Positions 1,635-18,258 of a stretch of DNA of 57,469 nucleotides are shown here, one piece after another (position 1 is the stretch's first letter; the number at the start of each line of letters is the position of its first letter). Below the pieces are notes generated by a model. The model was not told the DNA's origin and did no database searches. It was given only the letters and a program-made list of their open reading frames with translations. The position numbers and the translations under genes are program-made. The stretch comes from a virus. Taxonomy: Duplodnaviria; Caudoviricetes. The DNA is taken from positions 1 to 57,469 of IMG/VR virus record IMGVR_UViG_3300030102_005019. The stretch is one strand, 5' to 3'.

Positions 1635-2654
1635 TTATCCTATTTTAGTAACTAAAACTCTAATATCATTTGTTGAAGGAGCTGCTCCAAAAGCAATAGT
1701 TAAAGTGTTAGTGTTTGTTCTTGTAACATCAGCAAAGACCGTGTCATAACTACTATTGTCATAAAGTTGTACTACAACATCTCTAGATCCTAAGTTATGA
1801 GTAACAGTATATGAGGTTGCTGATCCATCTCCAATAGAAGCAGCAAACGTGCTTTCTTGTATATTTTGAATTGTTTTATAATTAGAACCATCTTTTGTTA
1901 GTTCCCATACATCATTTGTTTCATTCCACCTTAATGACACATTGGTTGAATCGCCTCTTTCAACTTCAATACCAGCGTTTTCACTTGGAGATCCAGTTGC
2001 ATTACTGTTTAATGTAATTATATTATCAGCTAGGTTTATTGTTTCAGTGTTTACAGTAGTAACAGTTCCTGAAACAGTTAAATTTCCACTAACAATTAAA
2101 TTACCAGATATAGTAGGATTTGCTACTAAACCAATTTGTATTTGATTATTAGATACTGTTGTATCTATTTCATTAGATGTACCAGCAAATGTTAAAGTAT
2201 CAGTACCAATGCTTACAACATCATTTGAACCAGAATCAGCAGCTATAGTTAAATCTGTACTTATTGCAGCTGTACTAGCAGCTGTTATTTGTCCTTGCGC
2301 GTTTACAGTTAAAACAGGTATTGCAGTGCCAGAACCATAAGATCCAGCTGAAACACCAGTGTTTGTAATTGCAATATCATTTGCATTAGCTGTAATACCA
2401 GTACCACCAATAACATTAAGTGTTACTGAACCAGTATCACCTCCACCGGTTAAACCCGATCCCGCTACAACTTCTGATATATCACCCGTTAAATCTATCC
2501 ATGATGAACCACTATATACGAACAACTTATCGCTAGAGTTGTTAAAATATACTTGTCCTTCAACAGGAGAAGATGGCGCCGTACCCGTTGGGTGTAAAGA
2601 TGCATTTTGTAATTGATTATTTGCTAAATCAATATTAGATAAATATCTTGCCAT
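1635..2654 (-). CDS. Tail fibre / virion structural protein
   Basis: 339 aa, Gly/Ser/Thr-rich; AGIEVERG..LRWNETND and C-terminal YTVTHNLG motifs common in phage fibres. Confidence 0.65.
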   Translation of the reverse strand: MARYLSNIDLANNQLQNASLHPTGTAPSSPVEGQVYFNNSSDKLFVYSGSSWIDLTGDISEVVAGSGLTGGGDTGSVTLNVIGGTGITANANDIAITNTGVSAGSYGSGTAIPVLTVNAQGQITAASTAAISTDLTIAADSGSNDVVSIGTDTLTFAGTSNEIDTTVSNNQIQIGLVANPTISGNLIVSGNLTVSGTVTTVNTETINLADNIITLNSNATGSPSENAGIEVERGDSTNVSLRWNETNDVWELTKDGSNYKTIQNIQESTFAASIGDGSATSYTVTHNLGSRDVVVQLYDNSSYDTVFADVTRTNTNTLTIAFGAAPSTNDIRVLVTKIG

Positions 2655-11279: not shown

Positions 11280-11282
11280 TAC

Positions 11283-11567
11283 AGGACGAGTAGCTTAATT
11301 AGGTAGATTTGAAGCTAACTAAAAAATGTATGTGGTGCTAAACAGCGGGGCCTGATAAATCATTGCTGCAGTGCGTACGGAAGTGTATTACATTTATTAG
11401 TTATTTGATGGATTTCTACACATAAGTGAATTGCCTGATAGGTGGGTAAGAAATAGGAGATTTTGTAAGTCGTTCCCGCAAACCGGTAACAGTAGAAAGG
11501 TCCTGATTACAAATCCTTTTGAATCTAACCGGAAATCGGGGCATAAATCACACTAACTTGCCCACCT
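11283..11567 (+). ncRNA. Putative structured ncRNA(s), two adjacent folded domains
   Basis: ORF-free and GC-elevated; stems TAACTAAAAAATGTA/TACATTTATTAGTTA, AGGTGGGTAAG/CTTGCCCACCT and GATTTTGTAAGTC/GATTACAAATC. Confidence 0.55.
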
Positions 11568-11582
11568 TTTATATTAAAAGTT

Positions 11583-13134: not shown

Positions 13135-13387
13135 CCCTGAACTATATATAATGGATAATAAAGAAAAAACAAAAATACTGTTTGTATTAGATTTTACAGA
13201 CAGCAAGGTGTATCGTTATTACGCGCCAGCAGCAGAACAAAAAGAAAATAAAGTTTCTGCGCATAATCATACTTGGGTAGACATAGATGAATATCCAAAC
13301 TATGAAGATTTCATAATGGAAAAAGGTCACTCCCTTAGTAATTGTGAGTGGATGGTGTCAAACACAGACAGAATATATGGTGATTAA
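13115..13387 (+). CDS. Hypothetical protein
   Basis: ORF track; start may be ATG 13151. Confidence 0.6.
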   Translation: MRVNRNNPELYIMDNKEKTKILFVLDFTDSKVYRYYAPAAEQKENKVSAHNHTWVDIDEYPNYEDFIMEKGHSLSNCEWMVSNTDRIYGD

Positions 13388-13395
13388 TATAATAT
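13364..13395 (+). promoter_or_regulatory. Early promoter-like motif, copy 7 (leaderless geometry)
   Basis: ACAGAC-N18-TATAATAT; ATG 6 nt after TATAAT; closest promoter upstream of the ncRNA cluster. Confidence 0.75.
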
Positions 13396-13399
13396 ATAT

Positions 13400-13777
13400 A
13401 TGAATAAAATTACAACATTAAAAGCTGATGATAACCTGCGTGAAACAACAGGTAGTTACAAAATAGGTTCTTTAGACAATGTACACTTTAAAGATCTAGT
13501 AAACATGTTGGGTGAACCAACGTTATCAGGTGAATCTGGCGACGGTAAAGTTCAGTTTGAATGGGTGCTAGAGCATGACAATAGGCTCTATACAATATAT
13601 GACTGGAAAACATACGACGCAGAGTACACATTAAACGAGTTAACAACCTGGTCTGTAGGTGGTAAAGAATATATAGACAATGATTTTGTAACAGAAATAT
13701 TCAGGTTGTGTGAAGAAAATTGTCCAGAAAACGTAGCTGAAAGTATTATGTTTTATAGTGGATCTGGATTTAAGTAG
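13400..13777 (+). CDS. Hypothetical phage protein
   Basis: LGEP..DGKVQFEW...TIYDWK...WSVGG motif seen in small phage proteins. Confidence 0.65.
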   Translation: MNKITTLKADDNLRETTGSYKIGSLDNVHFKDLVNMLGEPTLSGESGDGKVQFEWVLEHDNRLYTIYDWKTYDAEYTLNELTTWSVGGKEYIDNDFVTEIFRLCEENCPENVAESIMFYSGSGFK

Positions 13778-13910
13778 GCGGCGGCATACTGGTCACGTTA
13801 GCTTTATACCCGTTAGAAACAATGGTTGAATCCATGACGGTCGTCAAAGCAAAACAGAAAGAGCGGATAAATGATAATACTAGTTAGCTACCAGTCCGCA
13901 ACTGCTGCCT
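13776..13910 (+). ncRNA. Putative structured RNA with T-loop-like hairpin
   Basis: Closing stem AGGCGGCGG/CTGCTGCCT, plus ACTGGT/ACCAGT, GCTTT/AAAGC, CCGTTA/TGACGG and ATGG-TTGAAT-CCAT. Confidence 0.55.
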
Positions 13911-13913
13911 TAT

Positions 13914-14021
13914 TGGCATGATATGGTATTAAAGAGATAACACTAATGATTAGCTGGAACATAAGAAACACGCTGTCGCATAAGAACTCTTACGAAGGTT
14001 CGACTCCTTCCATGTCAACTA
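13914..14021 (+). ncRNA. tRNA-like / miniature tmRNA-like RNA
   Basis: Acceptor TGGCATG/CATGTCA with G3-U70, discriminator A, T-arm GAAGG-TTCGACT-CCTTC, stemless D-loop ATATGGTATTA, P2-like AAGAG/CTCTT. Confidence 0.65.
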
Positions 14022-14090
14022 AGTTATGGCCGAGGATCCATATTAGGTTTTTATTATTTTTATTTTTCATATTTACCTTGGTCATAACTT
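14021..14090 (+). ncRNA. 15-bp hairpin with 40-nt U-rich loop
   Basis: AAGTTATGGCCGAGG / CCTTGGTCATAACTT with two G-U pairs. Confidence 0.45.
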
Positions 14091-14094
14091 TAAT

Positions 14095-14520
14095 ATAGCT
14101 GTAGGTGGGGTTGCAAACCCACTGAAGAGTTAGTACCCAACAACGCCTTGCGGGAACAAGGGGTAGGGGGTTGCTCAGTCATCTAGACGACATGCTTATA
14201 AATATAAGTATGATAATCAGAGATATACTGAGAGCGATTAAGATCTATTACAAAGGAACTATATAGATTGTTCCATGATAGGTATGAAGCTGGCTGATAA
14301 TTAAGGAACACCTCACGCTATTGAGGTTAGCCAGACTGTTGTAATCAGATATGATTATTCAATGAGTAGTAATACTTAAGAATAGTGGTTGAACACTGCA
14401 ACAAGCTATCAAGATTAAGCGGGTAAACCGATTAGCTAGGTCTTATGGTGTCTATACGCCGTCTAACTCGCGCTTAATGTAGCCAACGACGGTCACAAGC
14501 CCGTGTAAATACAGAGTGAG
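14095..14520 (+). ncRNA. Large multi-branched structured ncRNA (closed domain of about 315 nt plus 3' hairpin/pseudoknot)
   Basis: ATAGCT/AGCTAT closing stem enclosing at least eight helices, then ATTAAGCG/CGCTTAAT and ACGG/CCGT hairpins. Confidence 0.6.
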
Positions 14521-14536
14521 CGCAAAATTATAAATT

Positions 14537-14707
14537 ATGGGAATTACAAAAAAACAATTTAATTCGTACGTAACAGTACAAGAATCAGGTATTACTAATA
14601 TGTTCAACGTATCATTAGTAACTGACTTGACAGGGCTGACAAAAGATCAGTGTATTGACATAATGAAAAATTATGAAGAATACAGTAAAAAGTTTTCGAG
14701 TGTATAG
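14537..14707 (+). CDS. Small protein, possibly DUF5049-like (56 aa)
   Basis: MGITKKQFNSYVTVQESGITNMFNVSLV...; the SGxTNMF motif is recalled from small phage proteins. Confidence 0.55.
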   Translation: MGITKKQFNSYVTVQESGITNMFNVSLVTDLTGLTKDQCIDIMKNYEEYSKKFSSV

Positions 14708-14716
14708 CAACAGCGT

Positions 14717-14748
14717 ACAGACACAAAACAAGTTCTTGCGTATAATAT
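14717..14748 (+). promoter_or_regulatory. Early promoter-like motif, copy 8
   Basis: ACAGAC-N18-TATAATAT preceded by GTGTATAGCA. Confidence 0.75.
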
Positions 14749-16907: not shown

Positions 16908-17561
16908 AATAGACTAGATTATTTAAATAATAATAGAATCATATACAGAAGGTATCCTGTAAATGATAAACCTACACATGATTTTGTGTGGGGTTGGTTT
17001 TATGAACAAGGCACGCATGAGTACTATTATTTATTTCATAGTGCATCTATGATAACAACGTACAGATCATTAAAATGGCATATGCTTGTTTTATCATACC
17101 TCAATACCGAAATGACAAATGATAATTTTAAAAAACTATACAAATACATAACTAATAGAGATAATGGATTTACAACTTTTAGTATTAATAATAACGATAG
17201 CAGCCGTATTTTTAAGGAAATATTAAATTCAGACTTTGAACGAGCACCAAAAAATAAAGCTAGAAAAGTCATATTTAAAATGGGTTGCGGATTAACAAAA
17301 ACAGAAAAATTAAAAATAACAGGAAGTTTAATAGGTAGAAAAAACAGTGTTACAAGTAGTGATTTATATGAAATTATGTTATATATTCATGATACAAGCG
17401 AAAAAATTACGATAAAAAAGATTGCGACTATATTAAAAGTTTCAACTCGTACTATATTTCGAAACATGAATAACCAACTTAATAAAGAAAAGAAATTACT
17501 TAATGAAGAGTTACAACGTACCAAATTACGTACGTTACAAAAAGAGTTTAGCGGAACGTAA
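16899..17561 (+). CDS. C-terminal HTH DNA-binding protein (possible initiator or regulator)
   Basis: ITIKKIATILKVSTRTIFR helix-turn-helix. Confidence 0.65.
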   Translation: MSHNRLDYLNNNRIIYRRYPVNDKPTHDFVWGWFYEQGTHEYYYLFHSASMITTYRSLKWHMLVLSYLNTEMTNDNFKKLYKYITNRDNGFTTFSINNNDSSRIFKEILNSDFERAPKNKARKVIFKMGCGLTKTEKLKITGSLIGRKNSVTSSDLYEIMLYIHDTSEKITIKKIATILKVSTRTIFRNMNNQLNKEKKLLNEELQRTKLRTLQKEFSGT

Positions 17562-18258
17562 AATTGAAAATAAACCTTGGAAAGAATATACAAGAGAAGA
17601 ATTAATAATAAAGCTTATGCCATACGCAGAACAAATATCACATAGTTTTTCTACAGCTGATAAAGCTTCAGGTGTTATGAGCATGTTAGACATTATGCAA
17701 GAATCTTTCTATGGTTTAATTGCAGCTGTGGATCGTATAGACTGGAACATTATAGTTCAGGGTGATGAAGATGAAGTATTAAAACAAATAAAAGGCTTTG
17801 TTAAAAAAAGAATTAAAGGGTCAACAAGAAGACACATAGACATGAACAGAGGAGATATACGTATACCAGAACATAAGCTTAACGAAATACGTAGAAATAA
17901 TGGTGAAGATAAAAAAATGATTAAGATGTTTTTTAACTCAATTTTTCTAAGCATTGATGATGATGATGACAGAAAAACAAATTATGAGTTCGAAGACAAA
18001 TCAAAACAATATAATATTAATATTCTTAATAAATATATATTATCTTTGATGAAGACTCATTTAAATGATAAAGAATATGAAGTATTAAGAATGAGCTATG
18101 GTTTAGACTGTGATAAATTACAGGCAAAAGAAATAGCAGCAATACTCAATATAACAGGAGTATCAGACTTTGTGAGAATATCACAAATAAAAAGAGAAGC
18201 TCTGGATAAACTTATTGAAAAGGTAGATCCAGACAGTATTATAGATTTTTTAAACTAA
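17503..18258 (+). CDS. Phage sigma70-family sigma factor
   Basis: Region 2 DIMQESFYGLIAAVDRID, IRIPEH, and region 4 LNDKEYEVLRMSYGL..AKEIAAIL..RISQIKREALDKL. Confidence 0.8.
   Translation: MKSYNVPNYVRYKKSLAERKIENKPWKEYTREELIIKLMPYAEQISHSFSTADKASGVMSMLDIMQESFYGLIAAVDRIDWNIIVQGDEDEVLKQIKGFVKKRIKGSTRRHIDMNRGDIRIPEHKLNEIRRNNGEDKKMIKMFFNSIFLSIDDDDDRKTNYEFEDKSKQYNINILNKYILSLMKTHLNDKEYEVLRMSYGLDCDKLQAKEIAAILNITGVSDFVRISQIKREALDKLIEKVDPDSIIDFLN

Follow-up and report, generated by a model that had tools for sequence, protein, structure and literature searches.

The window analyzed here is the whole of the IMG/VR virus record IMGVR_UViG_3300030102_005019 (Duplodnaviria; Caudoviricetes), a stretch of 57,469 nucleotides (nt) with a completeness rating of 89%, and it carries a series of structured RNA elements between two small open reading frames (ORFs), all on the plus strand. 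The upstream ORF, at 13400-13777, encodes a protein of 125 amino acids (aa) that belongs to no known family, and its stop codon overlaps the first bases of a pseudoknotted small RNA that we refer to as module 1 (13776-13911). This is followed by a tRNA look-alike that resembles the tRNA-like domain (TLD) of transfer-messenger RNA (tmRNA) and occupies positions 13914-14018, by a spacer hairpin (14022-14090), and by a large structured domain of ~375 nt (14095-14469) that runs without interruption into a predicted type-P1 twister ribozyme (14470-14523). The first downstream ORF (14537-14707, 56 aa) starts 14 nt past the ribozyme and would begin on the 5'-OH product of its cleavage.

The noncoding stretch and its source phage

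Several lines of evidence indicate that this region is a site of structured RNA. Between 13778 and 14536 there are zero ORFs of more than 50 aa on either strand, and the full 750 nt fold better than shuffled sequences (z -4.06, 0 of 20 shuffles equal it). An earlier note on this DNA, made from the sequence alone, had described an array of folded RNA modules, and based on the ORF scan, the fold score, and the covariation presented below, 13776-14523 is indeed an ORF-poor stretch containing structured RNAs. Its proposal of at least five abutting modules stands insofar as there are separable conserved elements, but the six modules that it listed reduce to three RNA genes and one hairpin. The border that it placed at 13776 lies inside the TAG stop codon of the upstream ORF, exactly where homology with other phages begins (alignment A4) and where RNA-library contigs with different upstream sequence join, and its border at 13914 is the first base of the acceptor stem of the tRNA-like element. 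Likewise, its segment 14021-14090 is a genuine hairpin, with a 15-bp stem (14022-14036/14076-14090) and a 39-nt A/U-rich loop (z -5.12, 0 of 200 shuffles as good). When the segments are folded one by one, this hairpin (14021-14091) is supported and the twister is mildly so (z -2.19), and the first, second, and fifth modules of the earlier note do no better than shuffles (z -1.20, -0.70, and -1.09). Because single-sequence folds fail for these three, their support has to come from covariation.

Standard annotation captures little of this content. ARAGORN reports 0 tRNA genes and no tmRNA in the window, and a search of the whole window against Rfam at gathering scores returns no match. A permissive Rfam scan of 13600-14700 yields two meaningful rows, that is, a type-P1 twister at 14471-14522 and a weak tRNA at 13919-14018. 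A blastn search of GenBank phages with the stretch and with two other members of the large-RNA family found no match, and thus no cultured carrier is known. The record encodes a tail fibre, portal, terminase, primase-helicase, ribonucleotide reductase, thymidylate synthase, and sigma-factor-like protein. The closest terminases come from uncultured Caudoviricetes (62%) and then from phages of Flavobacterium, Cellulophaga, and Tenacibaculum (46%). Based on this terminase relationship, the host is probably a marine member of the Flavobacteriia. At least part of the stretch occurs in 20 of the 22 listed sequencing runs, labelled as marine, seawater, or aquatic metagenome, and 6 of these 20 are RNA libraries.

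The large RNA and its twister ribozyme

Covariation is extensive in the large domain and the ribozyme that follows it. A two-block pattern derived from the window and two relatives retrieved 19 stretches from viral sequences, 11 of which are members by alignment, and a pattern that combined an internal block with the twister core retrieved 34 stretches from metagenomes, of which 34/34 match the family profile. The resulting family contains 46 loci including the window and forms 24 clusters at 96% identity, although some loci represent the same contig in two collections. The subgroup that includes the window is ~50% identical to most other members. RNAalifold applied to 23 representatives (alignment A3) predicts 103 base pairs, 53 of them with compensatory changes, and for the pair counts we used a lightly edited version of this structure together with the twister pseudoknots, giving 106 pairs. 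Pairing is possible in 98.2% of cells compared with 84.7% in shuffles, and it drops to 33-42% when partners are slid by 1-3 columns. Compensatory changes affect 53 of the 106 pairs, as opposed to 35.0 +/- 2.8 in shuffles (0 of 500 reach the observed value) and at most 19 in the slid controls. The domain also contains invariant 15-base words, and conserved stretches left unpaired by the structure lie at A3 columns 160-209, 216-267, and 388-425. The plus strand of the 23 members contains no long open frame (at most 28-56 stop-free codons), and Rfam gives no match to the domain either in the window (E up to 10) or in seven other members (E up to 1).

The architecture of this domain is dominated by a closing helix (14127-14133/14463-14469), which is 99.4% paired, has two covarying pairs, and encloses ~15 helices, with P1 of the twister following it without a gap. 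The earlier note had treated 14095-14409, 14414-14478, and 14489-14519 as separate modules. Because the closing helix spans these segments and abuts P1, and 14470-14523 forms a single twister, 14095-14523 reads as one RNA of ~430 nt and not as three modules. Two minus-strand members, L248 (8726-9214) and L256 (8616-9107), carry an extra insert of ~40 nt, able to fold into a hairpin by itself, at alignment columns 225-262, and these columns therefore tolerate insertions. A hammerhead-like word near 14123 was rejected, as it is not conserved.

The 5' hairpin of the large RNA (14105-14109/14118-14122) displays the palindromic loop word UUGCAA (14111-14116). Among the metagenome copies, which were found with a pattern that excluded the loop, 33 of 34 extend to this position, and 31 have UUGCAA whereas two have UUCGAA. 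In L268 and L291 the two swapped loop columns are the only ones of 508 that differ from all 21 other sequences, and no partner within the large RNA has changed along with this GC-to-CG swap. The preserved palindrome fits a loop-loop pairing between two copies of the RNA and may serve as a lead in this direction, one that comes from a single event in two related sequences.

The element at 14470-14523 aligns to the full length (positions 1-68) of the Rfam type-P1 twister model, RF03160, with 55.8 bits and an E value of 1.4e-11, and the same model matches 7 of 7 other large-RNA members scanned (41.9-56.2 bits). The predicted structure consists of P1 (14470-14474/14519-14523), P2 (14478-14481/14510-14513), and P4 (14490-14492/14501-14503), together with the pseudoknots T1 (14494-14496/14516-14518) and T2 (14482-14483/14499-14500). 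P1, P2, and P4 (helices 16, 17, 19, and 20 of the family structure) are 99-100% paired across the family, with compensatory changes in two pairs of P1, three of P2, and two of P4 or its extension. The core letters of L1 and L4 agree with the RF03160 consensus and both pseudoknots are present, T1 as CAC/GUG in place of the Rfam consensus CCC/GGG, a change that is matched on both sides, and T2 as GC/GC. In the published description, twisters require P1, P2, and P4 but can do without P0, P3, and P5, with P3 lacking in ~20% of cases, including the O. sativa ribozyme; two pseudoknots (T1 and T2) are carried, and cleavage separates a conserved A adjoining P1 from the less conserved U that precedes it (PMC5408937). 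The window copy shares the three stems, the L1/L4 core, both pseudoknots, and the U-A step beside P1 with type-P1 twisters in general, and the absence of P3 with the O. sativa ribozyme in particular, and it departs from the model in its score below the gathering cut-off, in its T1 variant, and in the ~375-nt structured domain at the position of P0. By these features the element has the anatomy of a type-P1 twister without P3 or P5, for which self-cleavage between U14475 and A14476 is predicted from the alignment to the model.

The union of this ribozyme with a large RNA is not a general property of related twisters. There are 67 other phage twister sites that have the same T1 variant and enough upstream sequence, and only five of them are without a long open frame in the upstream 450 nt, of which two belong to the large-RNA family. 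Most phage twisters with this T1 thus appear to follow a gene, and the fusion to a large RNA appears special to the family described here. We found no description of a twister joined to a ~375-nt structured domain at P0 in the literature searched or in Rfam 15. A search with RF03160 of 47 records that encode a homologue of the 125-aa protein gave 0 matches, but its built-in controls also gave none, so that this negative carries little weight. The earlier note had not recognized the twister and had assigned the release of neighbouring RNAs to the tRNA-like element, which does not agree with a large RNA that carries its own 3' ribozyme. It had also proposed a stem, 14414-14421/14471-14478, as part of a module of its own; this stem is pairable in 81.5% of cells, with 0 compensatory pairs, and 461 of 500 shuffles reach this level. 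As an alternative helix it would cover P1, the cut site, and part of P2 of the twister, and it could be a folding switch or nothing.

Module 1 and its tRNA-shaped neighbour

A 21-base pattern from module 1 found 36 stretches in viral contigs, 29 of which match the family profile, and 23 distinct complete copies were aligned (A4). The alignment supports an outer helix (13776-13784/13902-13910), two further stems (13789-13793/13890-13894 and 13798-13801/13880-13883), and a crossing stem (13863-13867/13895-13899), as well as a variable hairpin inserted between 13802 and 13850 that ranges from 0 to ~85 nt among copies. Paired cells amount to 96.8% compared with 92.3% in shuffles (0 of 500 reach the observed value) and 29-54% in slid controls. 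Compensatory changes are seen in four pairs. Each of the two stems that cross (13789-13793/13890-13894 and 13863-13867/13895-13899) contains one of these pairs, and both stems are paired in 23/23 sequences with no unpaired cell. Based on this alignment, module 1 is predicted to be an H-type pseudoknot closed by an outer helix. It has no match to an Rfam family (at E up to 10 in the window, with other loci scanned too). The possibilities that it is a tag frame or an RNase P-like RNA, raised by short word likenesses, were dropped, since the frame is not kept and compensatory changes alter codons.

Module 1 appears to belong to phages. Among the matches to its pattern listed for bacterial genomes (at least 120), only L392 is a true copy; in this locus module 1 and the look-alike lie together (1733-1953, minus strand) on an 8.6-kb contig binned into a metagenome-assembled genome (MAG) of Aliivibrio, which is probably a phage contig inside the Aliivibrio bin. 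The remaining listed matches are in keeping with chance. In 25/25 complete copies the element 2-8 nt 3' of module 1 is tRNA-shaped, being a look-alike in 19 and a tRNA-Met in six. We therefore take the 3' end of module 1 to be set by processing of its tRNA-shaped neighbour, as the shape of that neighbour suggests. Inspection by eye of the tRNA-Met sequences (L293, L297, L298, L300, L318, and L322) reveals three G-C pairs that close the anticodon stem, which is an initiator-type mark.

The register of the look-alike is taken from its relatives and its architecture from constrained folds. In the window, the acceptor stem (13914-13920/14011-14017) contains G13916.U14015, which corresponds to G3.U70, and is followed by an unpaired stretch that bears GG (13921-13930), a variable long stem, and a T arm (13994-13998/14006-14010). 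The discriminator is A14018 (A73), after which comes CUAA, and CCA is not encoded. The acceptor start at 13914 coincides with the border given in the earlier note, whereas the Rfam tRNA register begins at 13919. This build, which consists of a seven-pair acceptor stem, ~10 unpaired bases that include GG, a long helix that varies among copies, the T arm, and the 3' acceptor strand, is shared by the 19 distinct copies in alignment A5, where 12/12 tested pairs form in 19/19 copies and five have compensatory changes. The 5' acceptor strand covaries with the 3' strand (three of seven pairs are compensatory, with the G.U kept throughout), and the T arm and the 3' acceptor strand are the best-conserved part. 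G3.U70 and A73 occur in 19/19 copies, as expected of a tmRNA TLD, and together they form the textbook mark for charging with alanine. The copies are 69-143 nt long, without an anticodon arm and without a tag template.

The closest known counterpart of this element is the TLD of tmRNA. The look-alikes of L324 and L295 match the tmRNA model RF00023 at 34.1 and 33.4 bits (E 3e-12 to 5e-10; cut-off 47), and in these matches both ends of the model align whereas 314 of 374 positions are skipped. Because only the two model ends align, the L324 and L295 elements correspond to a TLD without tag frame or pseudoknots. A tmRNA mRNA-like domain, with its resume codon, tag frame, and pseudoknots, is absent, and ARAGORN finds no tmRNA in the window or in 34 related loci. 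The look-alike resembles the TLD in its acceptor stem with G3.U70 and A73, in the unpaired GG stretch that stands in for a D-loop, in the long helix that replaces the anticodon and D arms, and in its T arm, and it differs from tmRNA in having no tag reading frame, no pseudoknots, and a length of only 69-143 nt. Tag-less tmRNAs of jakobid mitochondria offer a parallel. In the literature searched we found no description of a tag-less tmRNA form beside a fixed pseudoknot RNA. It has been reported that tmRNA is charged with alanine (PMC3985003) and that ~2.3% of phage genomes contain tmRNA genes, which take a two-piece form in some marine phages (PMC9004378). We conclude from the conserved features that the element is best described as a tag-less, tmRNA-type tRNA mimic with the alanine marks G3.U70 and A73; it may be charged with alanine, bind SmpB, and affect ribosome rescue.

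Arrangement, transcription context, and proposed maturation of the cassette

Comparison of 328 fetched loci (designated by L numbers) and the window indicates that these RNAs do not travel as a unit. Module 1, the look-alike, and the large RNA occur together only in the window and in a near-identical metagenome contig, L261, and most carriers of module 1 have no large RNA in the available DNA and vice versa. In the nearest relative, represented by L170, L108, and L264, the large RNA (92% identical to that of the window in L170 and L108) lies ~680 nt downstream of the look-alike with two ORFs of ~98 and ~69 aa between them, module 1 is missing, a homologue of the 125-aa protein is encoded right after the ribozyme, and a homologue of an 82-aa downstream protein is encoded upstream. 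Because the units occur apart or re-ordered in relatives, they are best viewed as a cassette of independent RNA genes that are shuffled as modules and not as a fixed operon. The ordered operon of the earlier note is thus found in full only in the window and L261, and its order is partly lost elsewhere.

The cassette is embedded in what is probably the early region of the phage. The repeat CAGAC(A/T)-N17-TATAAT has 11 matches in the window compared with 0.92 +/- 1.08 in shuffles, and nine of these are on the plus strand between 7948 and 16514, where they punctuate a block of small early ORFs. The earlier note had placed the RNAs downstream of promoter copy 7, and as a repeat this is borne out: the seventh plus-strand match, CAGACA-N17-TATAAT at 13365-13393, is identified by its consensus alone, and the following copy lies at 14718-14746, such that the RNA cassette and its flanking small ORFs fall between two promoter-like sites. 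We suggest that the nine plus-strand copies are probably the early promoter set of the phage. A sigma-factor-like gene is located at 17503-18258.

RNA-library contigs from four runs of four studies, which may derive from DNA and whose ends are not RNA ends, include pieces of module 1, the look-alike, and the large domain. One piece (13591-13809) joins the upstream ORF and module 1, two others (13780-13951 and 13619-14090) join module 1 and the look-alike, the second of them also taking in the ORF and the spacer hairpin, and three fall on the large domain (14116-14471, an exact span of 356 nt; 14124-14457; and 14166-14377). A contig folds back at the hairpin and has a loose end at 14090. A gap in the contigs at 14481-14668 and the contig ends at 14471 (X4), 14457 (X20), and 14377 (X18) were entertained as RNA ends and dropped, as they belong to contigs, fall in different places, and each come from single studies. 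The spacer hairpin itself has counterparts of similar position. As read by eye, a hairpin of different sequence in L170 (5733-5812) occupies the same place just before the large RNA, and in other members a small hairpin 10-20 nt before the large RNA is often followed by an A/T-rich word like a -7 box. Candidate roles for the hairpin at 14022-14090 are a terminator-like stop, a cleavage site of the RNase III type, and a component of a promoter that serves the large RNA.

Taken together, we favor the hypothesis, to which we assign a probability of roughly two in three (0.68), that the locus is a cassette of three independent noncoding RNA genes and a spacer hairpin in the early region, matured by the following processing. 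Transcription would start at promoter copy 7 and proceed through the ORF at 13400-13777. Host RNase P would cut at 13913/13914, both freeing module 1 with a 3-nt trailer and creating the 5' end of the look-alike, the 3' end of which would be trimmed after A14018 and receive CCA. Charging with alanine may follow, and the look-alike could then interact with SmpB, EF-Tu, or ribosomes or serve as a decoy for them. Cleavage by the twister at U14475/A14476 would release the large RNA as a molecule of ~380 nt with a 2',3'-cyclic phosphate six bases past the closing helix, and the chemistry of this ribozyme class predicts that the downstream early mRNA would begin with a 5'-OH, followed by the 48 nt that remain of the ribozyme. 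Two copies of the large RNA may kiss through the self-complementary apical loop. Among large-RNA members the first downstream ORF belongs to one of several unrelated groups, of which the largest comprises 11 loci, and for this reason we regard the ribozyme as acting for the upstream RNA and not for any single downstream gene. This processing logic is well grounded in the anatomy of the elements, with cleavage and charging predicted from their sequences. A more elaborate proposal is that the ~380-nt domain is an ornate phage RNA of a new class, which matures itself through the twister and pairs via its loop into an RNA-only particle, that the alanine-accepting mimic takes part in or blocks ribosome rescue, and that module 1 is the pseudoknot partner of this mimic; as a joint claim we regard this as rather unlikely.

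A number of observations weigh against the hypothesis of a processed cassette or parts of it. As for the look-alike, its match to the Rfam tRNA model RF00005 (22.7 bits, E 0.057) has mispaired D and anticodon stems and lies below 29 bits, and a cloverleaf with an anticodon arm at that score is not found; its first acceptor pair is U-A instead of G-C, and the L170 copy, which is outside the 19-copy set, has U and not A at the discriminator. Covariation in module 1 is limited to four of 23 pairs, with long stretches that never vary, and 11 of 23 sequences fail to form one of the outer-helix pairs. The 55.8 bits of the window twister do not reach the RF03160 gathering score of 67.2, a shortfall that is due to its empty P3 positions, and T1 and T2 (helices 18 and 21) are invariant in the family, being partly fixed by the search patterns. 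The case for the loop palindrome comes down to one double change in two related sequences, and the word could equally be the site of a dimeric protein. Many family members have, by eye, an A/T-rich word like the Bacteroidota -7 box just upstream of the large RNA, and because of this word the large RNA may have its own promoter and stand outside any single precursor. The possible DNA origin of the RNA-library contigs and the gap in host identity, which is bridged through the terminase, belong on the same side.

The most substantial alternative is that the ~430-nt unit is an oversized twister in which the large domain acts as a P0 arm or sensor that times the cut, with the downstream early mRNA as the target, in the manner of an aptazyme or leader. 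Since P0 is a recognized optional stem of twisters (PMC5408937) and the closing helix abuts P1, the arrangement has a natural reading in these terms, and ORFs indeed start 14-35 nt past the ribozyme in the window and in the members read by eye. The helix 14414-14421/14471-14478 might compete with the ribozyme by masking P1, the cut site, and P2, and can pair in the fraction of cells given above, but without compensatory pairs it equals shuffles. Moreover, the downstream ORFs are not one family, which leaves no constant gene to be regulated, and the domain would leave the mRNA once cleavage has occurred. With ~15 helices of its own and invariant 15-base words it also exceeds any described ribozyme arm, and the rarity of frame-less upstream regions at same-T1 twisters (5/67, two of them in the large-RNA family) argues that a large arm is not the rule. 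We thus consider a regulatory twister unlikely and prefer independent RNA genes.

The model of the earlier note, in which RNase P and RNase Z process one precursor chiefly at the tRNA-like element to yield an RNA-based host-takeover or anti-defence system, contains elements that we retain, namely a real cluster of structured RNAs in an early transcription unit and a real tRNA-like module that begins 3 nt after module 1. The RNA-library contig that spans the ORF, module 1, the look-alike, and the hairpin (13619-14090) agrees with it, and tRNA and tmRNA fragments are part of one known phage anti-CRISPR complex (PMC11662646). However, the large RNA has its own 3' ribozyme and lies 72 nt from the look-alike, with a long hairpin in between, and relatives carry the units separately. 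The proposed role in takeover or anti-defence finds no support, and a scan of 28 window proteins revealed neither genes nor motifs of defence or counter-defence. Such a single-precursor system is improbable in our view. Less probable still, to the point that we give it very little weight, is the idea that the look-alike is a leftover attachment site of a temperate phage, copied from the 3' portion of a tmRNA or tRNA gene in the host, and not a working RNA. Phages often integrate into ssrA and carry its fragments (PMC9004378), and the T arm and 3' acceptor strand are the part of the look-alike that is conserved best; yet the 5' acceptor strand is present and covaries (three of seven pairs), all 19 copies are fully paired with the G.U kept, and the one true bacterial-genome copy of module 1 among the matches listed (at least 120) sits on the 8.6-kb MAG contig. 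Furthermore, no integrase family turned up in the 28 window proteins scanned, other ORFs being outside the scan. A cassette of working RNA genes therefore remains our preferred explanation.

The tRNA cluster of phage T4 provides a precedent for this arrangement, since small stable RNAs are co-transcribed there beside tRNA units and RNase P defines the shared borders. In both cases small RNAs are immediate neighbours of tRNA-shaped units within an early or middle phage transcript. The two differ in that the tRNA-shaped unit here is non-decoding, its pseudoknotted neighbour is of a different family, and a ribozyme would take the place of host nucleases for one member. With regard to the large RNA, our best guess, by analogy, is a trans-acting, self-associating ornate RNA of the GOLLD and ROOL sort. 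The GOLLD and ROOL cages are assembled through kissing loops, as is the OLE dimer; GOLLD and ROOL are borne by phages near tRNA genes, and the GOLLD sequence env-38 lies downstream of a Met-tRNA (PMC12286853). Like them, the large RNA is large, heavily covarying, phage-encoded, near tRNA-type genes, and without an evident protein partner. Unlike them, it has no Rfam match (E up to 10), is smaller (~380 nt), and has its own 3' ribozyme; and whereas GOLLD and ROOL form oligomers by kissing loops, the large RNA is known as a sequence whose self-complementary apical loop gives a hint of the same.

As judged from these comparisons, the twister represents a known kind of RNA in a new setting and the look-alike a tag-less variation on a known kind, and neither module 1 nor the large domain belongs to a catalogued family. 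A survey of 10,006 viral candidate RNAs was limited to lengths of 29-151 nt and has 0 mentions of ribozymes or twister in its main text (PMC10690425). The role of twisters in bacteria and phages is described as still open (PMC5408937), and a twister that stays joined to a single conserved partner RNA throughout 24 sequence clusters offers a concrete candidate job, 3'-end formation of the large RNA. Module 1 and the large domain would extend the short list of big, heavily covarying phage RNAs, and a tag-less mimic with alanine marks across marine phages points to a possible contact of these phages with ribosome rescue or with tRNA-directed defences. All three RNA elements are short enough for direct bench work.

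The protein encoded upstream of the cassette (13400-13777) has no Pfam or PHROG match, and relatives with invariant core words such as YDWKTY are found in 79 viral loci. Its AlphaFold model (pLDDT 83.6) matches no PDB fold at E 0.001 or better, the best being weak lipocalin-like rows. The look-alike lies directly upstream of a homologue of this ORF in L004 and L005, and the large RNA does so in L108. tRNA genes are present within ~4 kb on each side in 20 of 80 scanned loci, which comprise the 79 fetched loci and the window's own stretch (L001), the latter with no tRNA gene call.

A second ORF-free stretch at 11280-11582 (plus strand) contains two more conserved RNA-looking modules, neither with an Rfam match at E up to 10. 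Words from the module at ~11327-11392 recur directly 5' of module 1 in L314, L308, L293, and L318 and within the insert of the look-alike in L306. The other module, a stem-closed element at ~11443-11568, carries the word pair AAAUAGGAG ... CACACUAA, which is also found inside the long helix of the look-alike in L295 and L306 and occurs twice upstream of the look-alike in L170 (4815-5010).

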